Below are positions 8,660 to 46,448 of a stretch of 64,000 nt of DNA, piece after piece. Both the position numbers and the translations under genes were made by a program. The notes below the pieces were generated by a model. That model was not told the origin of the DNA. It worked only from the letters and a program-made list of their open reading frames with translations, and did not search any database. This DNA comes from a virus (taxonomy: Duplodnaviria > Caudoviricetes), in IMG/VR virus record IMGVR_UViG_3300014613_000002, positions 1 through 64,000 of that record; one strand, 5' to 3'. The stretch's first letter is position 1; each line of letters begins with the position of its first letter.

Positions 8660-8893
8660 ATGATAATGACTTGCCCCAAATGTCATGGAAGTGGGAAGAT
8701 ATGGCCAGATGATGCTGATACTGTTACTGGAATTAGTTGGCATACCTGTCCTTCCTGTGGTGGGAAAGGATATGTAACTGATACCCCAGAGCTCACCAGA
8801 CATGATAGCAAGGTTTATCTTGGCCATAAGACAGTATTGGAATGCCCGTACTGCCATCAGGGAATCAATATTCATGCTACGATTGGAGAATAG
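8660..8893 (+). CDS. DnaJ-type CxxCxGxG zinc-finger protein
   Basis: CPKCHGSG, CPSCGGKG. Confidence 0.75.
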   Translation: MIMTCPKCHGSGKIWPDDADTVTGISWHTCPSCGGKGYVTDTPELTRHDSKVYLGHKTVLECPYCHQGINIHATIGE

Positions 8894-9087
8894 CTAAGGA
8901 GGTAAATATGAATCGGTTTTGGAAAATAGCAGACTACCTTATAATTATCTGTGCCTGCGTTATGGGTGTCCTTACTGCAATTACTAAAAGTGTTGAGCTA
9001 TGGTGGACAATATTCTTTTGGCTATTCATAGTAATTATATCAAGGATTGAAATTATTCTTATGACTAAAATCATAAACAAAAATTAG
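8842..9087 (+). CDS. small two-TM membrane protein (likely start 8908)
   Basis: SD before MNRFWK; two hydrophobic stretches. Confidence 0.6.
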   Translation: MPVLPSGNQYSCYDWRIAKEVNMNRFWKIADYLIIICACVMGVLTAITKSVELWWTIFFWLFIVIISRIEIILMTKIINKN

Positions 9088-9116: not shown

Positions 9117-10148
9117 ATGAGTTCATTAACAACTGACCTATTGCTCGACATTGCATCAGAGAAGAACGGCTATCGCATTGGAGACCCTTGGCGTTTCTCC
9201 GAGTTCTCCCTGGTGGCAGTTATTCCTATCACTAGAGTGGTCGAGACGCCCAGAGCTTATCGCCTTCTCTCGGAAGTTAAGGATGAGGTTCGGATTAAGG
9301 ACACTGGCTCTATCAGCCAAATAGAGATAGAGAACAAGTATGAACTACCTGTGCTTCTGAAGTCTGGTGAGATTCTCTCTGGGGCAACCCAGGAGAGAAG
9401 TCTTACTATGTCTCAATTCTTAATGTCTGGAGAAAAGATAATGGCTTCGTGTGTTTGCGTTCACTCAAGCGAGGGGATTAGGGCAGGTCAGCAAGTTAAA
9501 CCAGATGGGTTTGTTCCAGCTCAAGTTAGGAGAACAGTTTTAACTAGACGACCAGATGTTAGCCCTCTTTACCGTGATTGGGGTTATGAGTCTGGTGACG
9601 GGCAGCCTAGCCAAAGCCAGGTTTGGGGTAGCATAAACAAAATGTCTGCTAGTATGTCTGATGCCACTTACAGAATGTGCTCCTATATGGCAGCTAGCGG
9701 AGATTACGGTACTATCCCAACTAGCAGTTGGACAACTTCATCTGACGACTTAGCTGGTCGGCTCAGGGAATCCAACAAGAAGTTTGAGGCCATCATCAAA
9801 AAGGTACCCAAAGCAGAAAACCAAGTTGGCTTCTGCCTAGTTACCATTGATGGTTTCGACACCCTCGATGTGTTCAACCACCCAGAATCTTGGGAGGCTA
9901 TTAGGAAGGACATCCTGAAGGCTGAGGTTACTAATATAGCCGATGTCCACAAGGACAATCCTTTCCAATACAATCCTGAGAAAGCTAAGGCAATCCTCAC
10001 TCAGCTCCTAAGTTCCAAATTTGAGGAAAAGAACATAGTGGAGAAGGAAAATACTACTACTGTTCTATTGGAAAGTGGGGAGCTGAAGGGTGAGGTCGTG
10101 ACCCTTTACGGATTGCCAATTCATCTTTCCCTATTAGGGAAGAGCTAA
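9117..10148 (+). CDS. ARPP-1/DUF6569-like protein
   Basis: VIPI..., IENKYELPVLLKSGEILSGATQERSL, VCVH pattern recalled for ARPP-1 domains. Confidence 0.6.
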   Translation: MSSLTTDLLLDIASEKNGYRIGDPWRFSEFSLVAVIPITRVVETPRAYRLLSEVKDEVRIKDTGSISQIEIENKYELPVLLKSGEILSGATQERSLTMSQFLMSGEKIMASCVCVHSSEGIRAGQQVKPDGFVPAQVRRTVLTRRPDVSPLYRDWGYESGDGQPSQSQVWGSINKMSASMSDATYRMCSYMAASGDYGTIPTSSWTTSSDDLAGRLRESNKKFEAIIKKVPKAENQVGFCLVTIDGFDTLDVFNHPESWEAIRKDILKAEVTNIADVHKDNPFQYNPEKAKAILTQLLSSKFEEKNIVEKENTTTVLLESGELKGEVVTLYGLPIHLSLLGKS

Positions 10149-10191
10149 AAGGGAAATGGCAGGCTGCTCTCAATAAAGGAGGAAAAACGAA

Positions 10192-10440
10192 ATGCTAACT
10201 TGCTTTGAATGTGGGAAAGAAACACCAATGACTAATTTCTATCTACTAAAGCAGTATAGTATTAGCTCCCATAGTCGTTATTGGCATTTTTGTAGTGCAG
10301 ATTGCTTATTAGAGTGGCTGAAAGAGCAAGACCATATAGCACGATTTGGTATCAATAAACCTAAGCTCATTACTTGGGATTGGGAGGGAAATAAAGGAAA
10401 GGAGATAGGGAGAAAATGCAAGGAACTCAATATGGACTGA
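10192..10440 (+). CDS. zinc-binding protein (TRASH/MYM-like)
   Basis: CFECG...HFCSADCL. Confidence 0.65.
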   Translation: MLTCFECGKETPMTNFYLLKQYSISSHSRYWHFCSADCLLEWLKEQDHIARFGINKPKLITWDWEGNKGKEIGRKCKELNMD

Positions 10441-32259: not shown

Positions 32260-32961
32260 TCAATTCAAGTCAAGTCCTATTTCATTACTCCATGACTGTT
32301 TGGAATCACGAATAACCATCACCTCAACCATAACTCTACCTGGCCCTAGAAAATTACCTATAGTTACATACGTTGGTGGGCCAGTGTCTCTACTAAGGTC
32401 TAGAGTTAATTTAGTTGCTGTTGAAGTATCAGGTATAACTGTTATTTCAGGATACCCCACTATGGCTTTACTGAGATGTATCCAAGTGTAGTTACCACTA
32501 AGGTTTCTGCCGTTGATGATAATTGTTCCACCTCTCCAACATGGGTCAGGTGTAATTGATTCGATATAGGGTTCTAGTGGAGGAGCTTCAGTAATTTCTA
32601 TACTAAATGCTCTCCTGCCTAGTTCCTCATTCCAGTCTTTCCAATCATTAGGTACTTCTGTTATACTAACGCTAAAACTTTTTCTCCCCAATTCTTCATT
32701 CCAATCTTTCCATTCAGTAGGTGGCGGCTCAGGGTAATGACATATTTCGATATTATCCTCTTCTGTTAGTACCCATTTGCCTTCTACAGAACAAGTGTAT
32801 AAATCATAATCTTTACACTTGGTATCTCCAGGTTTGCATGGGATAACTCCTTCTTCTTGGAGTAAACGATAGATACCGTAGCCAGCTGCCCCAGCTAAAC
32901 CAACGACTACTGCAACTTTACCAGCTTCTTCAATTGGTTTCTTTTTAGTTCTTTTAGCCAT
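32260..32961 (-). CDS. membrane-anchored protein: TM, Cys module, 2x 23-aa repeat, IPT/TIG-like domain
   Basis: CKPGDTKC; WKDWNEELGR x2; IESITPDPCWRGGTIIINGRNL. Confidence 0.8.
   Translation of the reverse strand: MAKRTKKKPIEEAGKVAVVVGLAGAAGYGIYRLLQEEGVIPCKPGDTKCKDYDLYTCSVEGKWVLTEEDNIEICHYPEPPPTEWKDWNEELGRKSFSVSITEVPNDWKDWNEELGRRAFSIEITEAPPLEPYIESITPDPCWRGGTIIINGRNLSGNYTWIHLSKAIVGYPEITVIPDTSTATKLTLDLSRDTGPPTYVTIGNFLGPGRVMVEVMVIRDSKQSWSNEIGLDLN
32587..32724 (-). repeat. two ~69-nt coding tandem repeats
   Basis: EWKDWNEELGRKSFSVSITE / DWKDWNEELGRRAFSIEITE. Confidence 0.8.
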
Positions 32962-34033: not shown

Positions 34034-35434
34034 TTATGCCCTTGCTACTATTATATTACCAGCTGTCCACTCTCGCATTGTAGATGTTCTATAAATGTCA
34101 CCATCATAGTATGAGTATCGTGCTCTGAACAGCAGGATATATTCTCCACTGGGTATTGGGCCTCTTTCAAATCTACTCTCTCCAAATGGGCCAAGGTTTA
34201 TATCAGCAAGGTCAATACCACCTGACGACAAATCCTCTATCTCAAATCCAGCAATATCACCTGGCCTGCCCCCATACTGGGTTCTCGGAGGTAATGGTTC
34301 AGGGTAAATTGCACAGCCAAGAGACCATCCAGAACTAGGACTTCTCGATACAGAAGTGCGGGCATTTAGATATTCAACAGGCGCAATAACTGCAACTGGT
34401 TGGAGGGCTGGTATAGCAGTCTCGTTATATATGTTCCAAGTTAGGCAAATGGGGCATGTCTTGACTGCCACCAACCTATCACTCCCAGGATGTTCATTTT
34501 GCTCCTCTGCTTGCGCTTCTATCCAATCTTCAATGAATACTTCTGCCTCGTGTGTCCACCATGGCATGACATAACCACACTTCTGGCAGACAACATCATA
34601 TCTAGTTGTGCTCCCCGCAGTTAGTTCAAGAGAAACATTGGTTAGCTCAATGCCTGTATTAACAAGATACTTTTCATATCTTATAATATGTTCCTCGTCA
34701 CAACTAATCCAGTTTTGTGTTCCAGGGTGTGTCAAGCAGTATTCTATTTCTGGGTATATATCATAAACAATCGTGATGGGAGTTTGCTCAATAGTTATCT
34801 CACTTGGCACTTCTGGTGGGAATGCTTCCACCGTCATTGACAAACCATCAATCTCAATATCATAGAAGCCAGGAGTAGGAGGAGTATAAGTAAAGGTTAC
34901 AGTGGTTCCTGCTGGCCATATATCCACTCTAACTAGAGTAACTTGTTGACTATCTATAACTTCACCATTTACAGTCAAAGCAACAGTTCTAGACACTTCT
35001 TCACCAACTGGAGCTATTTGTAGCATAGCAGTACAACTAATCTGGATAGGTGTACCTGCCGTGAATACTGGCGGCTCTACATTCAAGTGACTTAGCTCAA
35101 TGACAAATTCAGCGGTTTCCAAAACCATTTCGACGCTTCCTAAATCCTTTATCTGCCCTGCCGTTAGTGTTAAATTGACAGGACTATCCCTGTAGCCATC
35201 TACGCTTATTACACTGTAATATCCTGGAGTAATATTCTCTATAATGAAAAGGCCAAGTAAATCACTGACTCCACTGCTTCTAACACCGTCAAGGTATACA
35301 TACTTACCAGCGATTGCAGTCTTGCCACCTGTAGCTACATTCAGTTCCTTTATTGCTCCTGTCACAGTTGCTGGTACTGAAGCTAACGATACGTTTAATT
35401 CCTTTGCTTTACCTGCAGTTAATATTATTGACAT
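34034..35434 (-). CDS. surface protein: N-terminal donor strand, intact CarboxypepD_reg-like domain, CARDB-like Ig domain, Cys-rich region
   Basis: MSIILTAGKAKELNVSL; ENITPGYYSV..GY..LTLTAGQ; LNVEPPVFTAG..LTVNGEVIDSQQVTL..YDIEIDGL. Confidence 0.75.
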   Translation of the reverse strand: MSIILTAGKAKELNVSLASVPATVTGAIKELNVATGGKTAIAGKYVYLDGVRSSGVSDLLGLFIIENITPGYYSVISVDGYRDSPVNLTLTAGQIKDLGSVEMVLETAEFVIELSHLNVEPPVFTAGTPIQISCTAMLQIAPVGEEVSRTVALTVNGEVIDSQQVTLVRVDIWPAGTTVTFTYTPPTPGFYDIEIDGLSMTVEAFPPEVPSEITIEQTPITIVYDIYPEIEYCLTHPGTQNWISCDEEHIIRYEKYLVNTGIELTNVSLELTAGSTTRYDVVCQKCGYVMPWWTHEAEVFIEDWIEAQAEEQNEHPGSDRLVAVKTCPICLTWNIYNETAIPALQPVAVIAPVEYLNARTSVSRSPSSGWSLGCAIYPEPLPPRTQYGGRPGDIAGFEIEDLSSGGIDLADINLGPFGESRFERGPIPSGEYILLFRARYSYYDGDIYRTSTMREWTAGNIIVARA

Positions 35435-35443
35435 ATTTACCTC

Positions 35444-36274
35444 CTAAGAGTAGTTTCTCTCTTTCCAGTTTTCAAGTAATTGGGATTTATGCCCACTACA
35501 GAAGTAAAGTTTCATTCCCTGATTTACCCAATCTGTATAACTTAATGTGGGCTGAGCCATAACGCATGGTAAATTAGTACAGTGGCCTAACCCAAATAGG
35601 TGAGCCATCTCATGACTAAAGATACAACTGATAGCATAATCCTCGCCTTCCATTCCCCTCACATCTAACTCTGTCTTCAAACCACGAATTACTATAGTGT
35701 GTAAACCAGGGTAAGCAAGTAAGCCACTATGAAGGTTATCCTCAGTAATAATAACACACAAGTCCACATCATTATAGCCTTCTAAATTCTTTAGTACTCC
35801 ATACATAACAGACTTGTTATGAAAGTCATAGCCTTCTGCCGGTACTTCATGCTTTATAACAAATTCTATCGGCATTTCACCATCGCAGTAATTAGCTAAC
35901 AAATTCGCCTTGTAACCAACAATCCACCTACACCATTCATTCCAATTATCATGCCAGACATAAATGTCGCTACTTCCTTCAAATCCCTCAAGGTAGAAAT
36001 AATAAATACCCAATGTGTAAGTTTGGAGAGATGGTTTATAGACAGCACTAAATTGGACAAAGTCATAAATGTCAATAACACCATTATCGTCAAAATCGCC
36101 TATGGGATTGTAATTGGCGTCTCCTAACTTCGAGCCATAGCATTCTCTAAAGGCTATCCAGTCAGCCTCACCAATAGAACCATCACCATCAAAATCACCC
36201 TTTCTCTCTATTTCTGCAAGGGTTAAGATGGCATCTAACTTTCTTGGTTGTCCCTCTGTTAATTTTATTGCCAT
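35444..36274 (-). CDS. donor strand + dockerin-like domain + metzincin (M54-like) protease
   Basis: MAIKLTEGQPRKLD; GDFDGDG..GDFDDNG; HEMAHLFGLGHC..CVM. Confidence 0.8.
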   Translation of the reverse strand: MAIKLTEGQPRKLDAILTLAEIERKGDFDGDGSIGEADWIAFRECYGSKLGDANYNPIGDFDDNGVIDIYDFVQFSAVYKPSLQTYTLGIYYFYLEGFEGSSDIYVWHDNWNEWCRWIVGYKANLLANYCDGEMPIEFVIKHEVPAEGYDFHNKSVMYGVLKNLEGYNDVDLCVIITEDNLHSGLLAYPGLHTIVIRGLKTELDVRGMEGEDYAISCIFSHEMAHLFGLGHCTNLPCVMAQPTLSYTDWVNQGMKLYFCSGHKSQLLENWKERNYS

Positions 36275-36280
36275 AACTCA

Positions 36281-36547
36281 TCAGACTTCTTTTGTATCGT
36301 AATCTGGATGACTAAACCTAATAGTGTAAGTCCCTGCAGGAATATTAGTTATCTGGTAGCTACCATTAGAAATAGTATAGTCAGATAAACCCGTTCCCAC
36401 AACTTCGACCAACGCTCCACTTATTGCATAGCCAGACCCAGCTTCAGTTACTGTTCCATATAAAGTCGCTGGTTCTGGTGGAACATAAACTGGAGTTAGA
36501 CTGATATCTAGCTTCTTTGTTTGTCCTTCACTTAATGTTATCGACAT
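36281..36547 (-). CDS. 88-aa circularly permuted CarboxypepD_reg-like subunit (donor + acceptor)
   Basis: MSITLSEGQTKKLDISLTP then LYGTVTE..YQITNIPAGTYTIRFSHPDY, stopping before the last strands. Confidence 0.8.
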   Translation of the reverse strand: MSITLSEGQTKKLDISLTPVYVPPEPATLYGTVTEAGSGYAISGALVEVVGTGLSDYTISNGSYQITNIPAGTYTIRFSHPDYDTKEV

Positions 36548-36560
36548 AATTTATCTCCCT

Positions 36561-37055
36561 TTAGTATGTATTTACTTCCCAGAAATCAGTTTCATAAACA
36601 TCAGCAGCGGCAAGTTTATCAGCTCTAGACCGCCAGAATCTGAGATGCAGTGCAGAAACCAAGTATGTTCCGCCTAATTCACGTTCACGCCAAATGTAGG
36701 CATCATATTGTGGATTCCCTTCATAGATAGGGTGCCAAACTCCATCCCACTCGACCTCAAGTTGCATTAGACTTGTATAATTACTAGGCATAACTAAGTA
36801 TCTGACTTTACTGCAAAGTAGTGGTGTAGGGATTAACTCAAGCCAACCACTCCAGTTAGGCCCATAAATTATATTACACATTGCAAATGTTTGTTCATCA
36901 CCATCGTAAGCAGCTTCTGGAGGCCAGTTTGGATAACTACTCCAATCATTTTGGGGGTCGTTATATATTGTAGGTTTTACCCATCGAGCTTCTTTGATTG
37001 GTGTTAAAGAAACATCAACTCTTTTTGTTTTTCCTTCTTCTAATACTACTGTCAT
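36561..37055 (-). CDS. donor strand + discoidin/galactose-binding-like domain
   Basis: MTVVLEEGKTKRVDVSLTP; EAAYDGDEQT..WLEL..LHLRF..VYETDFW. Confidence 0.7.
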   Translation of the reverse strand: MTVVLEEGKTKRVDVSLTPIKEARWVKPTIYNDPQNDWSSYPNWPPEAAYDGDEQTFAMCNIIYGPNWSGWLELIPTPLLCSKVRYLVMPSNYTSLMQLEVEWDGVWHPIYEGNPQYDAYIWRERELGGTYLVSALHLRFWRSRADKLAAADVYETDFWEVNTY

Positions 37056-37466
37056 TTACATCACCTTCTCTTCATATCGTCCTAGTGGGTCGGTGAATGT
37101 CACAGTATAAGCACCTGGTGGAATGTTCTCTATCCTATAAGTCCCATCTAGGGCAGTAGTTCCAGGATAGCTATCACAGTTAACTGATATTCCTTCAATT
37201 GGACTCCCAGTTGTCTTATCAGTAACAGTTCCATAGAGAATAGCAGTTCCAGGTATTATAGGACATCGTACTTCATCATTTGGTACAATAACATCCCACT
37301 TGGTTCCCTCTGGATTGCATCTACACCAGTTAAGTCCTATGCACTTTTCGTCCCCTGGAGTGCATATAGCTACTGACGGCTTGAGATACTTGTAAGCAAC
37401 ATATCCACCAACTGCTGCTACTCCAACACTTAATGCGACCTTTTGTTCCTTTGTTAGCTTTACCAT
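37056..37466 (-). CDS. membrane-anchored protein: TM, Cys module, C-terminally incomplete CarboxypepD_reg-like domain
   Basis: TM; CTPGDEKC; LYGTVTDKTTGSPIEG..YRIENIPPGAYTVTF..GRYEEKVM stop. Confidence 0.8.
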   Translation of the reverse strand: MVKLTKEQKVALSVGVAAVGGYVAYKYLKPSVAICTPGDEKCIGLNWCRCNPEGTKWDVIVPNDEVRCPIIPGTAILYGTVTDKTTGSPIEGISVNCDSYPGTTALDGTYRIENIPPGAYTVTFTDPLGRYEEKVM

Positions 37467-37503: not shown

Positions 37504-37746
37504 TTACTTTTTTGTCAACTCAATGTAGGTATGGACTGTTCCTTCTAGTTTAGCCAGGTTAACACTGACTTCAGATACCTTTCCCACTAGACCGTCTACC
37601 TTTTCCACTAGGCCGTCATCAACTTTTCCTTCTAAGTTTTTAACTTTTTGAGTCAGCCCACCATAGGTATATACCTTGGTGTAAACCCATCCGAAGACAT
37701 TCAGTAGTGTGACACCACCTAGTGCTATCCAACTTGTTAAGTCCAT
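37504..37746 (-). CDS. N-terminal TM + coiled-coil protein (holin/hemolysin-like layout)
   Basis: TM then heptad repeats. Confidence 0.65.
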   Translation of the reverse strand: MDLTSWIALGGVTLLNVFGWVYTKVYTYGGLTQKVKNLEGKVDDGLVEKVDGLVGKVSEVSVNLAKLEGTVHTYIELTKK

Positions 37747-38726
37747 TGTATTGCCTCCTTATAGCTTTTATCCAGTCCTAATTTTTGGGTTACATTAGAA
37801 AATCTATTGGCTATAGTTGTCGTGTTGCTTCCTGCAAAAAGCAAGCCCACAACCATGTTATCTTCAGTTAAAATTATTGAACCGCTGTCTCCACCCTCTG
37901 AAACAGGCCCCATAACGAATTGGTCAGTAAATATCGCAGTTTCGCCATTCATACCAACATTGACGGTAGCATCGACCGCTGTTATTTCACCGTGAGTTAA
38001 ACCAGTTGTCCGCCCGGATTTCTTAATCTTCATTCCAACTTCTGGCCCAATTACCTCTTTGGGTAATCCAACTTCTAGAATTGAACTCAGTATATTCTTA
38101 GCATTATTGGGTTTGGCTAGGGCGCAGTCAACCAAATTGTCATTATCAGCCATAGGAAATAATCTTGTCCTTCTGCCAAATGCCTTAGCGGTAAAGTTAA
38201 ATATCTTGGCGATAAAGTTAGCGGCTGGGCAGAAGCTGGACATCCACATATTGATAGGAACAAATTCAGCCAATTTCCCTATTTCGCAGTCGCCCATCTC
38301 CGTTGTAATATCATAGGGGCCTGGCTGCAGAATGGCATCTCCTATCTGCCCTTTGTTGCAGGCAGCGAGCACATGATTATTTGATAAAATATACTTTTCA
38401 CCATTCTTTTTAACAGTCATGCCCAAGGTTCCAGCAGTTATATCTTTATGTCCAATGGAAACACCACCTGGAGCTGGCCTCCACTTATCAGTTCTTTCCT
38501 TGTCAGCATCCAGCAGCCTTATCTCGCCTACCTCAACTATGTCTGTTTCCTTTCCCTTTATCTTCCTTGGGACAATATCCCGTTTCCTTAATAGCTCTAA
38601 AGGCAGCTTCTTAACTACACCGATGACTATGGCATCTCTGCCAGTGTCTACTCCACTGGTTATCTTTTTCCCTCTACCAACGAGAACCACATTGCTTTTT
38701 CTGAGTAGCTTTTTATCCCAATTCAT
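37737..38726 (-). CDS. chymotrypsin-like serine protease with prodomain
   Basis: GTLG..LSNNHVL (His), VDCAL (Asp), GDSGS (Ser). Confidence 0.9.
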   Translation of the reverse strand: MNWDKKLLRKSNVVLVGRGKKITSGVDTGRDAIVIGVVKKLPLELLRKRDIVPRKIKGKETDIVEVGEIRLLDADKERTDKWRPAPGGVSIGHKDITAGTLGMTVKKNGEKYILSNNHVLAACNKGQIGDAILQPGPYDITTEMGDCEIGKLAEFVPINMWMSSFCPAANFIAKIFNFTAKAFGRRTRLFPMADNDNLVDCALAKPNNAKNILSSILEVGLPKEVIGPEVGMKIKKSGRTTGLTHGEITAVDATVNVGMNGETAIFTDQFVMGPVSEGGDSGSIILTEDNMVVGLLFAGSNTTTIANRFSNVTQKLGLDKSYKEAIQWT

Positions 38727-39217: not shown

Positions 39218-40063
39218 TTACTTCATTTTGTTAATCCCAAGTGCGCCATCAAAGATAGATGCTTTTGGCTCATGACCTTTCCCAACTCCCACATGGTCGC
39301 CTTGGTCTACCACCGTTCCAGCATCATAATCTACTTTGAGAGCATGGCCTATTCGGTCTACGAATGTTATGTAAGCGGTCTGGTACATTGGTGGATACCC
39401 CAAATCTCCAGCACAAAAGATATGCCCATTCTGAGGTTCGAGAATATACCAGCTAGTCAGGTCATGCCAATCGCCACCCACATAAAATATGTTGTAGGCA
39501 TGATTGCCTTTGCTCACTGAATCTCCACGAAGAATACATCCAGCACCCAATCCCTTGTAAGATGCCATTGCTGTGTCGGCGGAGAATCCACCACACATCA
39601 TATCGTGGTATTCTGAAATCTTAGTCCAAGAGCCAGCATTCCCCTCAAACTCATCAATTCCATCTATCTTGAGCTTGATTAGATATAGTGGTATATCCTC
39701 CGTGTGTGGAAAGTGTGGTTCTTTGTAGGTCATATCTATTCCATACTCAGTCCTTATGTTGCTGCGAATTACTCCTAAGTCCTTACCACCAGCAATACCA
39801 TCACCATCCTCGTCATAGTCCACTTCTTCGATGGGAAGATAAGGTGCTGATTGGTCAATGAAAGGCAAGTGGAGTATCTTCTGGTAGGTCTTGCCATAGA
39901 CTTTAGCAAACAGAACAAAATCAAATATATTTACCTTCCCATCATTGTTGAAATCTGCCCTTGAATCAAACTTCTTGTCTCCCTTCTTGGAGTTATAGCA
40001 AGAGGCAAACCTCACAAAATCATGAATGCCTATCTTGCCATCGTTGTCAAAGTCGCCCTTCAT
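39218..40063 (-). CDS. dockerin-like domain + papain/transglutaminase-like cysteine protease
   Basis: GDFDNDG..ADFNNDG; MCGGFS..HAYN..LEPQ (Cys-His-Glu). Confidence 0.7.
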   Translation of the reverse strand: MKGDFDNDGKIGIHDFVRFASCYNSKKGDKKFDSRADFNNDGKVNIFDFVLFAKVYGKTYQKILHLPFIDQSAPYLPIEEVDYDEDGDGIAGGKDLGVIRSNIRTEYGIDMTYKEPHFPHTEDIPLYLIKLKIDGIDEFEGNAGSWTKISEYHDMMCGGFSADTAMASYKGLGAGCILRGDSVSKGNHAYNIFYVGGDWHDLTSWYILEPQNGHIFCAGDLGYPPMYQTAYITFVDRIGHALKVDYDAGTVVDQGDHVGVGKGHEPKASIFDGALGINKMK

Positions 40064-40274: not shown

Positions 40275-41795
40275 CTATGCCTTTTGAATAAAGATTACTT
40301 CATAATACGCTGGTCTTCCCTCATCTGTGCTCCAAGGATTATGTGTATGGTCGCCAGGGTCACTTAATGTTGTATGAGTATGAGCATTCTCGCTATTATA
40401 AGTATGTGAGTGATTACCAGCAGCCAATTGCGAAGTTGGATAATTAGCACCACCTCCTGCTGCCTCAAAGTTAGTTGTGGTATGTGTATGGTTTCCTAAG
40501 GTGTTCGTAGCAGCGTGTTGATGTGCTCCAGCCGAAGTCTGTGAATGTGCTGAATGAGCACCAGCATTTTGGTCGGTATGAGTGTGGGTATCAGAGCCTC
40601 CTCCCCCACCAGGGTCAACTCCTGCATTTGAACCTCTAAGGAACTTACTCAGCATATTGGGTCTGGTATCGCCACCATCACACTGATTATATCCTACAGG
40701 GATATTTGCCAAAAGACCTGTCCATACCACGATGCCATTTGCAGGAATTGATGTTGCTCCTCCATCGTTAATGATATATGCCACATCATAATAAGCAGGG
40801 AGAGAGGAGGCAACAACTACAGTGTGAGCGTGGCTACCATCATCACCCATAGGATTATGATTGTGGGTATCTATAGTATTACTATTAGCATGAGTATGGT
40901 CTCCAGCATGAGTATCAGTTTGTAGTAGTATAGTGGTATCTGTCCCGATTAGACCATACTCGTCATTATGGGTATGCGTCCAGGTAAAGGCACTAAATGT
41001 ATGGAAATGGGCAGCGGCATTATCCATCGTGTGGCTATGAGCAGCTTGGGCAGTCTCAGTATGTAAATGTGTTGCTGTTCCACCAGTCGTGCCAGGTTCA
41101 GTGACATTTGTATTAACCCCTCTAATAAAGCGAGAGCGTAAGTCTGGTCTTCCATCACCACTATCACAAAGCGACCAGCCAGCAGGTATAGCAGCTAATG
41201 TTCCTGCCCAAATAATTATTAAATTGGCTGCCACTGCTGCACCAGCACCTGCCTGTATAAAAGCTACTTCATAATAAGGAGGACGACCATCATCAGTGCT
41301 CAAGAGATGAGTGTGGTCGAGAGTTGCATCCATCGTGTGTGAATGCACTGCTGAATTTGTTGTGTGCTGATGTGCACCAGCACCATCACCATTAAATCTA
41401 GTTGAGCCATCACTAGCTACTCCAGTAGTAGCAGTCCTATGTACGTGAACGCCTGCACTAACTACTACATGAGTATGAGACTGGTCTGCAGTAGTATGAG
41501 TATGTGCTCCTGCAGCAGTCATAGTAGCATGGGTATGAGTATCTGCTCCACCAGTAGTTCCTGCTTCAGTAGCAGCAGGTGCACCTCTTATAAACCTTGC
41601 AACGAGATTGGGTGTAGTACCACCACCGTCACAGAGAGTCCAGTTTGCAGGAATATTACCAAGCGTACCACTCCACATAACAACAACTTCTTGTGCTAGA
41701 GGAATAGCCCATATTACCCCTTTTACCTTAGCTATATTGGCTGCAAGCACTCCCATTATTTTGGCTGGATTAGTCACACCACTTATTTTAGCCAT
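40275..41795 (-). CDS. fibre protein with three tandem tail-collar + HxH repeat units
   Basis: 3x W.G....IP.[GN][WY]..CD....P.[LM]..[RK]F.RG; many HTH/HSH; 3x P[PA]YY.V.[FY]I. Confidence 0.85.
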   Translation of the reverse strand: MAKISGVTNPAKIMGVLAANIAKVKGVIWAIPLAQEVVVMWSGTLGNIPANWTLCDGGGTTPNLVARFIRGAPAATEAGTTGGADTHTHATMTAAGAHTHTTADQSHTHVVVSAGVHVHRTATTGVASDGSTRFNGDGAGAHQHTTNSAVHSHTMDATLDHTHLLSTDDGRPPYYEVAFIQAGAGAAVAANLIIIWAGTLAAIPAGWSLCDSGDGRPDLRSRFIRGVNTNVTEPGTTGGTATHLHTETAQAAHSHTMDNAAAHFHTFSAFTWTHTHNDEYGLIGTDTTILLQTDTHAGDHTHANSNTIDTHNHNPMGDDGSHAHTVVVASSLPAYYDVAYIINDGGATSIPANGIVVWTGLLANIPVGYNQCDGGDTRPNMLSKFLRGSNAGVDPGGGGGSDTHTHTDQNAGAHSAHSQTSAGAHQHAATNTLGNHTHTTTNFEAAGGGANYPTSQLAAGNHSHTYNSENAHTHTTLSDPGDHTHNPWSTDEGRPAYYEVIFIQKA

Positions 41796-42292
41796 TAAGC
41801 AATCTCCACAAGTTCCAGTGAAGGATTAAAATAAATTATATGAACTCCAATTATGCACTTACCAAGACACTGCACCTGCTCGCCACTATCCGCAGGTAAT
41901 ACATTATCAAAAGCACCAGCAACAGTATCACTCACATAGAGCATATCGCCAAGAGTAAAGGTAAGTATGGTATCCTCTCGGAAGAAACCAATAAGTAGAA
42001 ATTCCCCCCAAGCATCAGCAGCAAGTGTGGCCTCACAAGCCATGGCTATGGCAGGCATCGTACCCGCTGCATTGGACTGAGCTAACCACAGTTTACCATC
42101 GTTCTTCACATAGACAAGCTCGGTTCTGGTTATTATTTCACCAGCCTGTAATGTAGCAGTAAGCCCCGACCAGGTTTGGTCAGAAGTAAGGTTTGCGATT
42201 AGGTTTATGTTCATGCCTGAAGCTAAGTCAAGGCCAGCAGCTTCACAGGCTGATACTGCCCCAGCAGCAGTTACTAAAGCTCCTATCTTCAT
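41795..42292 (-). CDS. capsid-cement/DUF2190-like beta protein
   Basis: AGEII..LVYVKNDG..AMACEA..GEFLLIG; resembles C-terminus of 42826-44172. Confidence 0.55.
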   Translation of the reverse strand: MKIGALVTAAGAVSACEAAGLDLASGMNINLIANLTSDQTWSGLTATLQAGEIITRTELVYVKNDGKLWLAQSNAAGTMPAIAMACEATLAADAWGEFLLIGFFREDTILTFTLGDMLYVSDTVAGAFDNVLPADSGEQVQCLGKCIIGVHIIYFNPSLELVEIA

Positions 42293-42308
42293 TATCTACT
42301 CTACTCCT

Positions 42309-42824
42309 TCACATATCATACTTTAGGCATATATCAATGACTATCACCCCAGCCACATAGCCAGCAGCACCAACATTGGCTGTCCTGCTCAAGGTTACGG
42401 AGACATTATCCCCGTAAGCAATTGGGCAGGTGGCGTGGTCGTAATCCAGGACTATTGGCACCATATGGAAGCTGCCAGCGCCATTATAGGCCTCGATATT
42501 ATGATTTACTCCTGGAGTCTGTGTTGCAGCAGTATCCACATCCTCGTGGTCGGCAACGCTTATTATCGATGTCTCCCAGTCTATCAGGTCATTGGCAGTC
42601 TCATCCGCATCAAGCACGCAGTGGAGTATAAGTTCAAGGTCACTCTCACCATTCCAACCTTTAGGAATGCAGAATTGGACATAGAGGATTTCCGCATCAG
42701 CGGAGAATAAGAAGCCAGCAACCCCATTGCGCACGGCTGCCACAGGTGACGCAACGCCCTTCCTGAAGTTCTCCATTGGGAGCCTTTCTGTTACGCCTTC
42801 CAATTTCCAGTCTCCCACTTTCAT
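42309..42824 (-). CDS. jelly-roll-like vertex/spike accessory protein
   Basis: Resembles C-terminal domain of 44562-46448 (F.IP..., V...L.R, L.Y). Confidence 0.55.
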   Translation of the reverse strand: MKVGDWKLEGVTERLPMENFRKGVASPVAAVRNGVAGFLFSADAEILYVQFCIPKGWNGESDLELILHCVLDADETANDLIDWETSIISVADHEDVDTAATQTPGVNHNIEAYNGAGSFHMVPIVLDYDHATCPIAYGDNVSVTLSRTANVGAAGYVAGVIVIDICLKYDM

Positions 42825-42825
42825 T

Positions 42826-44172
42826 TTAATCCCACGGGCTTATTATGTAGGCGTCAATGACCCCATTGCTGTCATCGGTAGCGTATGCCTCAAGTGCCAA
42901 TGCGAATCCCTGGTCACCAGCGGCAGCCTTCATAGCTATACAAGCAGTGGTAAATGCCCCCAGTATGTCGTCAATGGCAATGTCAATAGTTCCGTTAACC
43001 TTGAGTACAGCCGTGAAACCCTTTACCAGCACATAGCCACTGGCATCATCCTCAATCGTTTCGGCGACCATGCCGTAAACCTTGTCATCTCCTTGCGTGA
43101 CTGTTGTGGTAAACTCGACTGCTGTCGCTATCCCCTTAATGATTACCACATCACCAGCCACTCTCTGGGAGCCAGAAGTGTTTTTGACATGGATGTAATG
43201 CTTATACTGGATTACATCAATCTCACGGTTGTCGTCTTGGACTATTGTCAGAGTCCCAGCGTCATTGAAGTTGGCTGTCTTGCCTGCATCGTGGAGGTCA
43301 TTGCCCTGGATGATGTTCTTATCGCTGGCAACATCCGATATGTTAATTCCATACCTTGGCTTATTTCCAAGAGCACCTTGCCTGCATACATTATTAGCGA
43401 TGAGGTTGTAGTCGCTACCACCAAGGAAAATATTATCATATGTATTATCTGCTGCCTGCGAATTCTCAAGACAGGTATTCCCTATGATGGTGTTGCTGTT
43501 GCTGTCGACGAGATAAATCCCGTAGCTATTCTCCTGACAAGTGTTGCCAATAATAGTGTTGTTACCGTTGATGAAAAAGTAAATTCCCACCCCGTCATTC
43601 CCCTGACAAGTGTTGCCACTAATAGTATTGTTATTGCTATTGGTAGGACAAATTCCACGGTTGTTCTCCTGACAGATATTGTTCACTATCTGGTTGAAGT
43701 CTGAATTGTCGAGATAAACACCACTATAATAATCGCTGCCGTTATGCCTTCTTGAGTAGACATTTTGGATAAGGGAGTAGTCTACATACTCGAAGTAGAT
43801 TCCACAGTTGCTTACCCTCCCAACACCACCATCAATTTGCAAGTCAGCAATGACTATATGCACCTTCTCAGTACCAGCACCACCCACAGCACTAAGGAAC
43901 ACAAGGTCAGCAGTAGAAGTAGTCAGGATAGTATTCCTACCGCACCCTCTGAGGGTTTGGTAAGAGTCAAGGTCAATTTGGACTTCACAGTTGTAAGTTC
44001 CATCAAGCAGGAATACCTCCCCACCAGTAGCAGGGAGGGCATCCAGGGCTTCCTGAATAGCCAAATGGTCATTTACGCCTGTGCATACTAGGTTAGCCGC
44101 ACTCTTATTCAAGCTATCACTGGCAGCTATCACCAGTGTGGCAGTCATTGCGCCTTTGTTCTCAATTGTCAT
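42826..44172 (-). CDS. right-handed beta-helix (NosD/pectate-lyase-like) spike protein
   Basis: repeated N.I.GNTC..N...GIY coils. Confidence 0.85.
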   Translation of the reverse strand: MTIENKGAMTATLVIAASDSLNKSAANLVCTGVNDHLAIQEALDALPATGGEVFLLDGTYNCEVQIDLDSYQTLRGCGRNTILTTSTADLVFLSAVGGAGTEKVHIVIADLQIDGGVGRVSNCGIYFEYVDYSLIQNVYSRRHNGSDYYSGVYLDNSDFNQIVNNICQENNRGICPTNSNNNTISGNTCQGNDGVGIYFFINGNNTIIGNTCQENSYGIYLVDSNSNTIIGNTCLENSQAADNTYDNIFLGGSDYNLIANNVCRQGALGNKPRYGINISDVASDKNIIQGNDLHDAGKTANFNDAGTLTIVQDDNREIDVIQYKHYIHVKNTSGSQRVAGDVVIIKGIATAVEFTTTVTQGDDKVYGMVAETIEDDASGYVLVKGFTAVLKVNGTIDIAIDDILGAFTTACIAMKAAAGDQGFALALEAYATDDSNGVIDAYIISPWD

Positions 44173-44173
44173 A

Positions 44174-44374
44174 TTACATCTCCGCCTTCACTGAATGTCC
44201 GTCACTGCATTTTATTGCTATACTATTTCCGCTGCTATTCTTGCCCAGAGACAGTGTTGACTTGCCATTCTGCATCAGCTTAACACCGTTATCATTCCTA
44301 ATAACTTGTGCTGTTAGCTTATGGCATACAGGGCAAAATATCATTTTGTTGGTAGCCAATTTAATCCTCTGCAC
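44174..44374 (-). CDS. small zinc-ribbon protein
   Basis: CPVCH...CSDGH. Confidence 0.65.
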   Translation of the reverse strand: MQRIKLATNKMIFCPVCHKLTAQVIRNDNGVKLMQNGKSTLSLGKNSSGNSIAIKCSDGHSVKAEM

Positions 44375-44546
44375 CTTTCAGAACTGCTTCCTTTATCAAT
44401 AGGATTTGGTTACTGATACAATATGTGCCTTTCTTTATAGGCATAGTAATTGTAGGAATAGGCATACCGTATTTACGGTGTATCTCCCGTATATCTAGTT
44501 GGCACTGGTTAAGGTCTTCTACTCTTACCTCATAATTCTTGCCCAT
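44361..44546 (-). CDS. hypothetical protein
   Basis: GGAGGTG SD. Confidence 0.6.
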   Translation of the reverse strand: MGKNYEVRVEDLNQCQLDIREIHRKYGMPIPTITMPIKKGTYCISNQILLIKEAVLKGAED

Positions 44547-44561
44547 TTCACCTCCTTTGTT

Positions 44562-46448
44562 TTAGACATATTGCAACCTCAATCCTAATAAATAACAATT
44601 AGCATCAACAGTATCAAGAGCATCACTGGCTTCTCTGGTAAATGTCATACCAACCAGGTCACCAGCAGCTATAGGGTCTAATGCACCACTCACATCAATG
44701 CAGTTAATATCATTAATAGTTACTGCTACTTGCCCAGCAGCTATGGTATCCGTGTGGTTATTGTAATTTTCACCAGTGCAAACTTTACCCCAATTAGCAG
44801 TAAATGTTCTCCTTAAATTACCTGCGCCACCTGGCACTATCATCACTTGGGCTCTTACAAGCTCTGTGAAATTGTTTGGGATATAGAACTCAAACCTGCT
44901 CATCACATCTATGCCATCAGTCAACAACTCGGCAGGATGAGTCCCTATGCTAGAGCTGGGGTTGGGCACTGGGACAAAGATATAAGGAAGAACTGTAGTG
45001 GTTCCACTATCAAGAATCTGGCCAGTGACATTAGCCAGTAGTTTGTTGTTCTCGACCACATTATTGATACAGCTTGCGGCAACTATCTCAATGCCATAAT
45101 CATCATTTACATCGCAGTAGTTATCCTTAATTAGACAGTCACTGTTGTTAGCCATAAGAGCAATACCACTTCCCATACCCTTGTAGCAACGATTACCTAT
45201 AATTTGCGCCTCGTTAGCTCCATCTTCAAGCTGGATACCATCTTCTTGCCTTGTGCCATCGCCTGAGCAGAAGTTACTATTTATCTGGCATCTATCCGCA
45301 CCACTACTAAGGTTGATTCCATGGTAAGTACCAGCAACAAGATAGCTGTTCTGGTAGCAGTAATTATCGTTTATGCTACACTCGACACCATCGGTATTTA
45401 TGCCATGCTGAGTATTCTGGTGGCAGATATTATTATTGAGGGAGTTTCTACTACCACCATTACGGATTCCATCAAGAGAACTGGTACAACAATGATTCCC
45501 TTCTACTATATTATCTTCCGAAGCACCATCTAGGTAAATACCACTTGAAGCATTACCATAGCAGTTATTACCTGAAATAATACATCTGATGGAAGTAGAT
45601 AATTCTATACCATCGTCACCGTTGCCATAGCAGGTATTGTCAGTTATGCCACAGTAGTTAGAAGTACCAAGCAGAATGCCCTCTGCGATTGAAGCAAGGC
45701 ACAAATTACCGCTTATCTCAGAATTGCTCGTGTCTAGTAGCTGTATCGCACGGTCACCGGCCTGATAGATGATGTTATCAGCTATAGTGCAATAGTTTTG
45801 ATTCCCGGTATTGCCAAAGAAAATTCCAGTGCTACCTGTGCCGACAATAGTGTTGAGGGTTATCTGTGCTCGCAATAGTGCGTTGGCACCATCCATATCG
45901 GCATATATGCCATGGACATCGGCATCCTCTATCGTAACATCGTGAATGGATAGGTCGTAAATTGTAGTGCCCTCAATGTGGATGGCATCACTATCGCTGT
46001 TTACAATGACAATCTCTTCAATATGGCAATTGTTAGAGCCGTCCTCGATAAATATGCAGTGACAGACCTTCCCACCACCATCCTCGGTCTGTATAGCTAG
46101 ATTCTTAACGATGCAATCAGCTACACTTGAAATGACAATGCCGTGCTCGCCAGTAGCAAGCCCATCTCCATCTATGAAAGTGGAGCGACCTTGGCCCTCT
46201 AAAGTGATATTATTTGCTGGAATGATGATAGGGTTAGCTAGATTGAAAGTGCCCTCGGATAGAATTACCCTTCCTTCACTGGCAGGGAGAGCATTAAGAG
46301 CTAGGTTGATTTGAACATCATCTGCCACTCCATCGCAAAGGAAATCAGCTTGTGCCCTTGACCTGTCAAGAGCATTATTTGCGGCAACAAATAGCGTAGC
46401 TACTCTCGGAGGCAGCCACATTCCTTGAGGAACACTTTCTCCTGGCAT
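44562..46448 (-). CDS. long right-handed beta-helix spike protein with C-terminal jelly-roll-like domain
   Basis: N-terminus paralogous to 42826-44172; ~15 NN.C..N..GI coils. Confidence 0.85.
   Translation of the reverse strand: MPGESVPQGMWLPPRVATLFVAANNALDRSRAQADFLCDGVADDVQINLALNALPASEGRVILSEGTFNLANPIIIPANNITLEGQGRSTFIDGDGLATGEHGIVISSVADCIVKNLAIQTEDGGGKVCHCIFIEDGSNNCHIEEIVIVNSDSDAIHIEGTTIYDLSIHDVTIEDADVHGIYADMDGANALLRAQITLNTIVGTGSTGIFFGNTGNQNYCTIADNIIYQAGDRAIQLLDTSNSEISGNLCLASIAEGILLGTSNYCGITDNTCYGNGDDGIELSTSIRCIISGNNCYGNASSGIYLDGASEDNIVEGNHCCTSSLDGIRNGGSRNSLNNNICHQNTQHGINTDGVECSINDNYCYQNSYLVAGTYHGINLSSGADRCQINSNFCSGDGTRQEDGIQLEDGANEAQIIGNRCYKGMGSGIALMANNSDCLIKDNYCDVNDDYGIEIVAASCINNVVENNKLLANVTGQILDSGTTTVLPYIFVPVPNPSSSIGTHPAELLTDGIDVMSRFEFYIPNNFTELVRAQVMIVPGGAGNLRRTFTANWGKVCTGENYNNHTDTIAAGQVAVTINDINCIDVSGALDPIAAGDLVGMTFTREASDALDTVDANCYLLGLRLQYV

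Follow-up and report, generated by a model that had tools for sequence, protein, structure and literature searches.

Why should two neighbouring genes of a virus both stop inside a folded domain, two strands short of its end, and why should four genes of the same group open with what looks like the missing piece? The question arises at positions 37466–34034, on the minus strand, of a stretch of DNA that is here called the window (64,000 nucleotides in all, being bases 1–64000 of the complete 74,930-bp IMG/VR virus record IMGVR_UViG_3300014613_000002, which has direct terminal repeats and is assigned to the Caudoviricetes). Near-identical DNA is present in the groundwater metagenomes of several studies. 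Five adjacent open reading frames (ORFs), of 136, 164, 88, 276 and 466 residues, lie at this position in the late/structural region of the genome, and an original prediction, made from the sequence alone, had seen in them a kit for building modular virion surface fibres from split domains; their coordinates and termini were found just as it had them. What follows sets out the evidence that a domain is indeed split here at a fixed structural position, and that the split is old and selected. The further proposition, that the function of these five genes is to complete the split β-sandwich in trans and thereby form a modular assembly, is regarded as fairly probable.

A domain divided at the gene boundaries

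The first of the five genes, reading along the minus strand, encodes what will be termed the anchor (136 residues; 37056–37466). By hydropathy this has an N-terminal hydrophobic helix at about residues 10–28 (37383–37439), in keeping with the membrane anchor originally proposed, followed by a Cys-rich stalk with five invariant cysteines (residues 35–68; 37263–37364) and then by a truncated CarboxypepD_reg domain (residues 75–136; 37059–37244) that ends 5 residues past an invariant Tyr131. The third gene encodes an 88-residue protein, the adaptor (36281–36547), in which a donor hairpin (36491–36547) is followed by a linker, PVYVPPEP, and by a second truncated domain of CarboxypepD_reg or X-module-like type (36284–36469), which ends 5 residues past an invariant Tyr83. 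These truncated domains are referred to below as sockets. The other three proteins, termed tips 1, 2 and 3 (164 residues, 36561–37055; 276 residues, 35444–36274; and 466 residues, 34034–35434), open with the same 19-residue donor motif, or plug, as the adaptor, and it is this motif, at the start of four of the five genes, that corresponds to the hairpin missing from the sockets. In tip 1 it reads MTVVLEEGKTKRVDVSLTP (36999–37055), while in tips 2 and 3 it is encoded at 36218–36274 and 35378–35434 respectively.

That the sockets are incomplete, and that the motif is what completes them, can be seen both in profile matches and in models. Taken singly, the 136-residue protein matches Pfam PF13620 over positions 2–56 of 82 only (41.6 bits) and the 88-residue protein over positions 1–63 only (51.7 bits), but if the stops are read through into the next gene these matches become 3–82 (50.3 bits) and 1–81 (55.9 bits) of 82. 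The single proteins also pass the gathering score of the family; it is specifically the full-length match that requires the gene boundary to be crossed. When the genome is searched in all six frames, CarboxypepD_reg domains spanning “one TAA” and “two TGA” are found independently. As to structure, the AlphaFold2 model of the 88-residue protein alone (predicted local distance difference test score, pLDDT, 94.9) finds its best match in the transthyretin-like domain of human carboxypeptidase D (5aq0_A), of which it covers residues 382–442 of 382–462 (Z 9.8, root-mean-square deviation (rmsd) 1.1, 61 of 81 residues); the last 20 residues, comprising the final hairpin, are missing. A cis proxy was then modelled, in which translation of the 88-residue gene runs on past its stops (with TGA as Gly and an artificial linker of 3 residues) to take in residues 1–22 of the 276-residue protein; this matches all 81 of the 81 residues of 5aq0_A (Z 14.4, rmsd 1.2). 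The appended donor forms strands at 94–96, 101–103 and 106–108, the block 101–110 having a mean pLDDT of 92. Both of the structural claims made at the outset, namely that two proteins end in a truncated sandwich of this type and that the shared motif is the hairpin they lack, are thereby borne out.

The motif itself was sought using a donor hidden Markov model (HMM) made from 17 donors taken exclusively from other loci. Among the 1635 candidate N-termini of the 74.9-kb genome, the four donors of the window rank 1–4, with scores of 42.5, 38.7, 30.4 and 16.1 bits, the next best N-terminus reaching only 6.1; the common motif that had been noticed by inspection on four adjacent proteins is in this way recovered independently and cannot be put down to coincidence. 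Within it, residues I3, L5, L13, I15 and L17 alternate in the pattern expected for the buried face of a hairpin, an Asp or Asn is near-universal (20 of 21 donors), and the second residue is small (S, T, A, P or V), again in 20 of 21, which is compatible with excision of the initiating Met. Once Met is removed, the Tyr-to-Gly spacing is 12 in both joined pairs, as it is in the intact copy of the domain within tip 3, the same value on re-reading as had been given before. The motif also matches the last hairpin of intact domains within sister proteins. Its conservation is at the level of protein and not of DNA, codons varying freely, which implies selection on the peptide; recent gene conversion among the four donors of the window was also considered, but is ruled out by the many synonymous sites at which they differ.

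It might nevertheless be supposed that fused products are made after all, whether by stop-codon read-through, by frameshifting or through an alternative genetic code. Four of the five ORFs do lie in joinable frames, and the TAA stop of the anchor abuts the ATG of the 164-residue gene (TAAATG); the same abutment suggests translational coupling of the anchor and the first tip. The gaps between the genes, from anchor to tip 3, are 0, 13, 6 and 9 nucleotides, so that they are tightly packed and clearly separate. However, the stops at the four junctions (TAA, TAA, TGA-TGA and TAG) are of three types, one of them doubled; clear purine-rich ribosome-binding sites (AGGTGA, AGGGAG and GGAGGT) precede three of the four donor genes, that of the 276-residue gene being weak; other genes of the window terminate normally under table 11; and at homologous junctions elsewhere the spacing between the anchor and the donor gene varies (−4, −1, 0, 1, 11, 17 and 19 nucleotides) across all three relative frames. 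Fusion at the level of translation is accordingly considered very improbable. A sequencing or assembly error, or the recent decay of a single long fibre gene, is hardly credible, having in its favour only the a priori oddity of a stop codon that cuts a domain. All four junctions are covered by contigs from the runs of other studies: three (within 36494–37121 and 36165–36362) are identical there, and the fourth (35434/35444) lies on a contig of 3,373 nucleotides whose three differences fall elsewhere. A metatranscriptome run also yielded three short identical contigs within the 88- and 276-residue genes, which are not counted as expression since DNA carry-over is possible.

Conservation across loci and a single-chain homologue

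Much of the case depends on what is seen at related loci, for 12 of which neighbourhoods were recovered (those designated L002, L003, L006–L009, L014, L015 and L017–L019, together with the window). Wherever the gene that follows the anchor is visible, in 12 loci out of 12, the donor motif stands at its start. The usual set comprises an anchor, an adaptor (one gene per locus) and between one and three tips; at its smallest, in L007, it consists of an anchor, an adaptor of 87 residues and a single tip of 399. Homologues of the anchor number 17 (18 with the window copy); they are of 132–171 residues, show 47–73% identity and share an identical end point, and 17 of the 18 members have six cysteines, the six conserved ones being five in the stalk and one in the socket. 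The 15 homologues of the adaptor (16 with the window copy) are of 87–93 residues, after correction of one mis-called start in L009, and keep both the plug and the truncated end. Without exception, the 34 sockets (18 anchors and 16 adaptors, 47–76% identical to those of the window) extend for precisely 5 residues beyond the invariant Tyr and no further.

The possibility that homologous loci would prove always to be single fused ORFs had been acknowledged with the original prediction as one that would speak for decay or error, but the loci are split in 12 cases out of 12. No fused socket–donor form was found among longer proteins, nor when the anchor alignment was used for an exhaustive profile search, though giant multi-repeat CarboxypepD_reg proteins crowded this last search, which for that reason speaks only weakly against fused forms. 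A single long protein, P0108, matched beyond the domain, and it has no Cys-rich stalk. Taken together, the fixed ends of the sockets, an architecture common to at least 12 independent metagenomic loci, the varied spacings and frames, and the independent contigs exclude sequencing error, recent decay and read-through, and it is confirmed that the domain is split at a fixed structural position and that the split is old and selected. IMG/VR scans using the 88-residue protein, the anchor alignment and a neighbouring protease (described below) gave no relatives, although such a scan may omit the window's own kin, and the anchor had no match among cultured phages.

Two observations from L009 concern the sockets directly. 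At 8663–8968 there is a variant anchor of 101 residues that keeps the helix and the truncated socket but is without the Cys-rich stalk, showing the stalk to be dispensable for the split; it is followed, with a 1-nucleotide overlap, by a donor gene started with GTG. At 9956–10234 the database call for the adaptor (P0031, 77 residues) begins 15 codons late, while the true start, MPVTLPSGQTRLDITM, with GGAGGT upstream, restores the donor hairpin, so that automatic annotation can evidently hide a split architecture.

A further line of evidence comes from the cellulosomal X-module–dockerin dyad (XDoc), which binds type II cohesins. From the 88-residue domain, through the gene boundary and the donor, to the dockerin repeats of the 276-residue protein, the sequence gives a single unbroken HMMER alignment to XDoc chains (4u3s_B, 4wi0_B, 2b59_B and 3kcp_A, E 1.8e-10 to 1.9e-7), the best being to 4u3s_B (E 1.8e-10, query 14–137 against chain 50–171); those matched include ScaA of Acetivibrio cellulolyticus (4u3s_B) and CipA of Clostridium thermocellum (2b59_B). 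When completed, the viral domain superposes on the X-module of 4u3s_B with Z 10.1 and rmsd 1.7 (83 residues aligned, 29% identity). The order of parts is the same in both, a sandwich with a dockerin of two Ca-binding repeats directly behind it, but whereas the cellulosomal dyad is one polypeptide, in the virus two genes encode the parts, the break in the backbone falling within the X-module ahead of its last hairpin. Since a single alignment runs across the 36281/36274 boundary, the two viral genes together share homology with a module found elsewhere as one continuous chain, which provides direct evidence of fission inside a domain and means that the joined pair matches an existing fold.

A split that is real and old need not have been kept for reassembly, and it may be asked whether it is instead a neutral scar, left by modular gene shuffling at tandem CarboxypepD_reg repeats. 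The tips do differ from locus to locus behind one and the same motif, as cassette exchange would predict, and several of them contain intact domains bearing the same hairpin. On this account, however, one would not expect 34 sockets of such divergence all to end at one residue, nor an exposed amphipathic hairpin to be conserved, as protein, at 21 N-termini, while a half-domain with an open hydrophobic core should be disfavoured by selection unless it were completed. The neutral account is therefore judged distinctly unlikely.

Proposed joining of the two halves in trans

If the halves are brought together, the scheme would be as follows. The anchor, held in the membrane by its N-terminal helix, would present an open socket, that is, a sandwich short of its last two strands. 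Proteins bearing the hairpin, made in the cytoplasm and with Met removed, would insert it into the socket to give a complete sandwich, so joining two polypeptides non-covalently in the geometry of a continuous multidomain fibre with a nick in it. The adaptor, which has both plug and socket and so can act to extend a chain, would add one more socket and lengthen the chain by at least one unit, while the plug-only proteins of 164, 276 and 466 residues would be alternative tips competing for sockets, the first with a discoidin-like domain as its cargo, the second with a dockerin and a zincin, and the third with an intact sandwich and a domain of uncertain kind.

The closest parallel in logic is donor-strand complementation, the joining principle of chaperone-usher and type V pili. 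There too a sandwich subunit is short of a C-terminal part of its fold and the N-terminal extension of the next subunit fills it, resulting in very stable non-covalent chains, and a subunit having both plug and socket, such as the viral 88-residue protein, could in principle polymerise. The differences are nonetheless considerable: the viral donor contributes two strands, as a hairpin of native topology, where theirs is a single strand, the viral fold is CarboxypepD_reg/transthyretin-like with no sequence relationship to pilins, and the viral chain is heterotypic (anchor, adaptor and several tips) and virus-encoded. No chaperone- or usher-like families were found in Pfam scans of those neighbouring proteins that were scanned, and this, with the lack of signal peptides on the donors, indicates that the kit is not a member of the chaperone-usher family, even though the joining logic is alike. 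The analogy as originally drawn is thus apt in its logic, but a two-strand hairpin in native topology places the viral case nearer to fragment complementation of a nicked domain. Donor-strand fibres have also been described for TasA (PMC9674648), for archaeal threads (bioRxiv 10.1101/2022.04.26.489512) and for archaeal bundling pili (PMC12337348). The earlier statement that no such system was known from a virus is consistent with full-text searches, which show donor-strand assembly for bacterial and archaeal filaments and not for structural proteins of viruses or phages.

A second comparison is with SpyTag/SpyCatcher, obtained by splitting CnaB2, which is related in fold (a prealbumin-like sandwich; 8bdw_A, Z 10.6) and similarly has a short C-terminal strand segment as a separate tag. 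SpyTag is man-made, and it locks by means of a Lys–Asp isopeptide bond. In contrast, alignments of the socket domains in both viral families reveal no invariant or near-invariant Lys or Glu, and the isopeptide triad is thus wanting; a covalent lock of this kind at the viral joint can be ruled out on sequence, and the joint is presumably non-covalent.

Several considerations weigh against assembly in trans and call for some caution. The completion of the fold by AlphaFold was obtained in a cis proxy containing an artificial linker. A true two-chain prediction, in which residues 70–136 of the anchor and a donor of 32 residues were supplied, both as alignments, gave a score of 0.49, the best of 3 controls reaching 0.04; at least 96% of contacts are shared between the runs, and the partner has a pLDDT of 64 or more. 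Of 80 solved complexes 58 attained the mark used, as did 2 of 110 mismatched pairs (rough counts, as custom alignments were used), but scores at 0.60 or under accompanied it in only 7 of the 80 solved complexes and in both of the mismatched pairs that passed. Prediction of an anchor with a donor peptide, which had been proposed as a check, lends weak support to pairing in trans. In the adaptor, moreover, its own N-terminus has a pLDDT of 91 in the monomer model but of 64–67 when the other donor is appended, a drop suggesting that the two donors may compete for one site and that the adaptor may cap itself in cis. Donors also outnumber sockets, 4 to 2. Lastly, the hairpin stands at the very N-terminus of the donor proteins, which lack any hydrophobic signal sequence, while the six conserved cysteines of the anchor suggest an extracytoplasmic, disulfide-bonded ectodomain, so that the two partners do not obviously lie on matching sides of the membrane.

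Some of these same points might be explained if the N-terminal peptide were something other than a plug: a targeting or docking signal for another partner (a protein of the vertex or capsid, for instance), or else a propeptide cut by a neighbouring serine protease, with the truncated domains being stable five-strand variants. Conserved N-terminal anchor peptides are usual on interchangeable phage receptor-binding proteins, and the excess of donors over sockets would be less awkward for such a signal. A protease is also at hand: immediately upstream of the kit (37504–38726, minus strand) are a Nal1/trypsin-like serine protease (37737–38726; phrog_20754 “protease”, E 4.9e-60) and an 80-residue membrane and coiled-coil protein (37504–37746), and in L003 and L009 the anchor is immediately preceded by similar genes, for a protease and for a membrane and coiled-coil protein of roughly 80 residues. 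However, the protease is swapped for other genes in L002, L006 and L008, a papain-like peptidase taking its place in L002. (In L019 an 84-residue membrane protein with the same internal motif lies directly upstream of the anchor.) More importantly, a signal for some other partner would hardly be expected to complete exactly the PF13620 profile and the 5aq0_A fold, to be equivalent to the hairpin with which the intact domains of sister proteins end, and to stand next to a socket gene in every one of the 12 loci. This explanation is therefore thought unlikely.

Branched tailspike sets of the CBA120-like and K1-5-like kinds offer an instructive comparison here, their distal proteins sharing a short conserved N-terminus that plugs into a common adaptor. 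They resemble the viral kit in having several distal proteins with one shared N-terminal plug, and so several specificities per virion, but their N-terminal module is a folded domain that sits on a complete partner, whereas the plug described here is a fragment of its partner's own fold. For completion of the sandwich in trans as the function of the kit, the balance is as stated at the outset. Its location at the virion surface is a more evenly balanced matter, capsid, portal and terminase proteins not having been recognised among the approximately 40 proteins scanned (PHROG and Pfam), and that the 88-residue adaptor polymerises is doubtful.

The tips, the virus and what the arrangement would mean

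The tips vary between loci behind the same donor motif, and of the three identities first suggested for those of the window some hold up better than others. Tip 1 (residues 22–163) has an F5/8-type-C-like, that is discoidin-like, fold in its Atlas model (template modelling score, TM, 0.66), and no Pfam match; the identity fits, as a lead only. Tip 2 has a dockerin-like pair of Ca-binding repeats, DFDGDGSIGEADW and DFDDNGVIDIYDF, at residues 25–84 (36023–36202), and a zincin region at about 35522–35617 with the sequence HEMAHLFGLGH (an HExxHxxGxxH motif), so that dockerin plus metalloprotease likewise fits as a lead. Tip 3 contains the intact CarboxypepD_reg copy at 35141–35323, and the CARDB-like character proposed for its remainder (about 360 residues of uncertain fold) is a weak lead.

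The dockerin part of tip 2 shares 47% identity with the N-terminal dockerin of another protein of the window, of 281 residues (39218–40063, minus strand), which opens directly with a type I dockerin (residues 2–51; Pfam Dockerin_1, E 2.5e-7) and has neither donor hairpin nor X-module; its orthologue in L017 is located after the tip genes. No cohesin (PF00963) was found in the 74.9-kb virus genome, and the viral dockerins are for this reason probably aimed at a host protein. A full-text search of the literature found no phage that uses dockerins for attachment. The zincin tip has the dockerin both in the window and in L017, while in L015 (4444–5097; 217 residues) the zincin stands directly behind the donor, indicating that the modules behind the plug are themselves shuffled. 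Two further observations relate to shared modules. At 32260–32961 (minus strand) of the window, a protein of 233 residues carries the N-terminal module of the anchor (38% identity over 74 residues, E 1e-8), with the basic N-terminus, the Gly/Ala-rich helix and the Cys motif CxPGDxKC...C...GxW in common; it continues as two 22-residue WKDWNEELGR repeats and an IPT/TIG-like domain, with no socket, and appears to be another type of membrane anchor based on this same stalk. PDB sequences gave no meaningful match to the stalk of the anchor. In L002 (12157–13117), two adjacent genes have a different N-terminal motif in common, MPxxxxxxxxTAxxxxTxTPxGxxCxxExxL, and may represent a further shared-plug family in the same group of viruses.

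As to the virus itself, three large fibre- or spike-like proteins are encoded at 40275–46448 (minus strand), two with NosD/β-helix matches and one matching a phrog “tail protein” (E 1.1e-40) and tail-collar families. Such tail-spike- and tail-fibre-like proteins are recognised, and many small membrane proteins are also present; the virus may be a tailed one or a tailless membrane virus. A tail-fibre-like protein of 506 residues gave one weak match among cultured phages, to a marine virus. An assignment of the host by way of a prophage in L063 (a Limnocylindrales metagenome-assembled genome) was rejected, the only match being fortuitous and lying within a large gene for an unrelated bacterial enzyme.

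If the halves do join, they would be a natural counterpart of SpyTag/SpyCatcher or of split green fluorescent protein, an enzyme- and chaperone-free plug suitable for any cargo and one that has evolved on many cargo domains. The most far-reaching version of the scheme, in which an uncultured groundwater virus clade possesses a chaperone-free “donor-hairpin” kit whose anchor nucleates fibres, whose 88-residue protein forms a head-to-tail polymer as a shaft variable in length, and whose competing tips cap it, the rebuilt XDoc of one capped form docking the particle or the zincin onto host cohesins, is unlikely to hold in full, but were it true it would be the first case both of viral donor-strand polymerisation and of viral cohesin–dockerin recognition. 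Even apart from this, the dockerin tip raises the idea that a virus may exploit the cohesins of its host. For protein evolution, the locus provides an unusually clean instance of gene fission within a domain, at one exact position over deep divergence and with a single-chain homologue, XDoc, available for comparison. For virology, the joining of a split domain would bring into viruses a building principle known from bacterial pili, and novel for viruses as far as could be found in the literature: a new way to give one particle several interchangeable distal proteins, each swapped by exchanging the gene behind a 19-residue adaptor.

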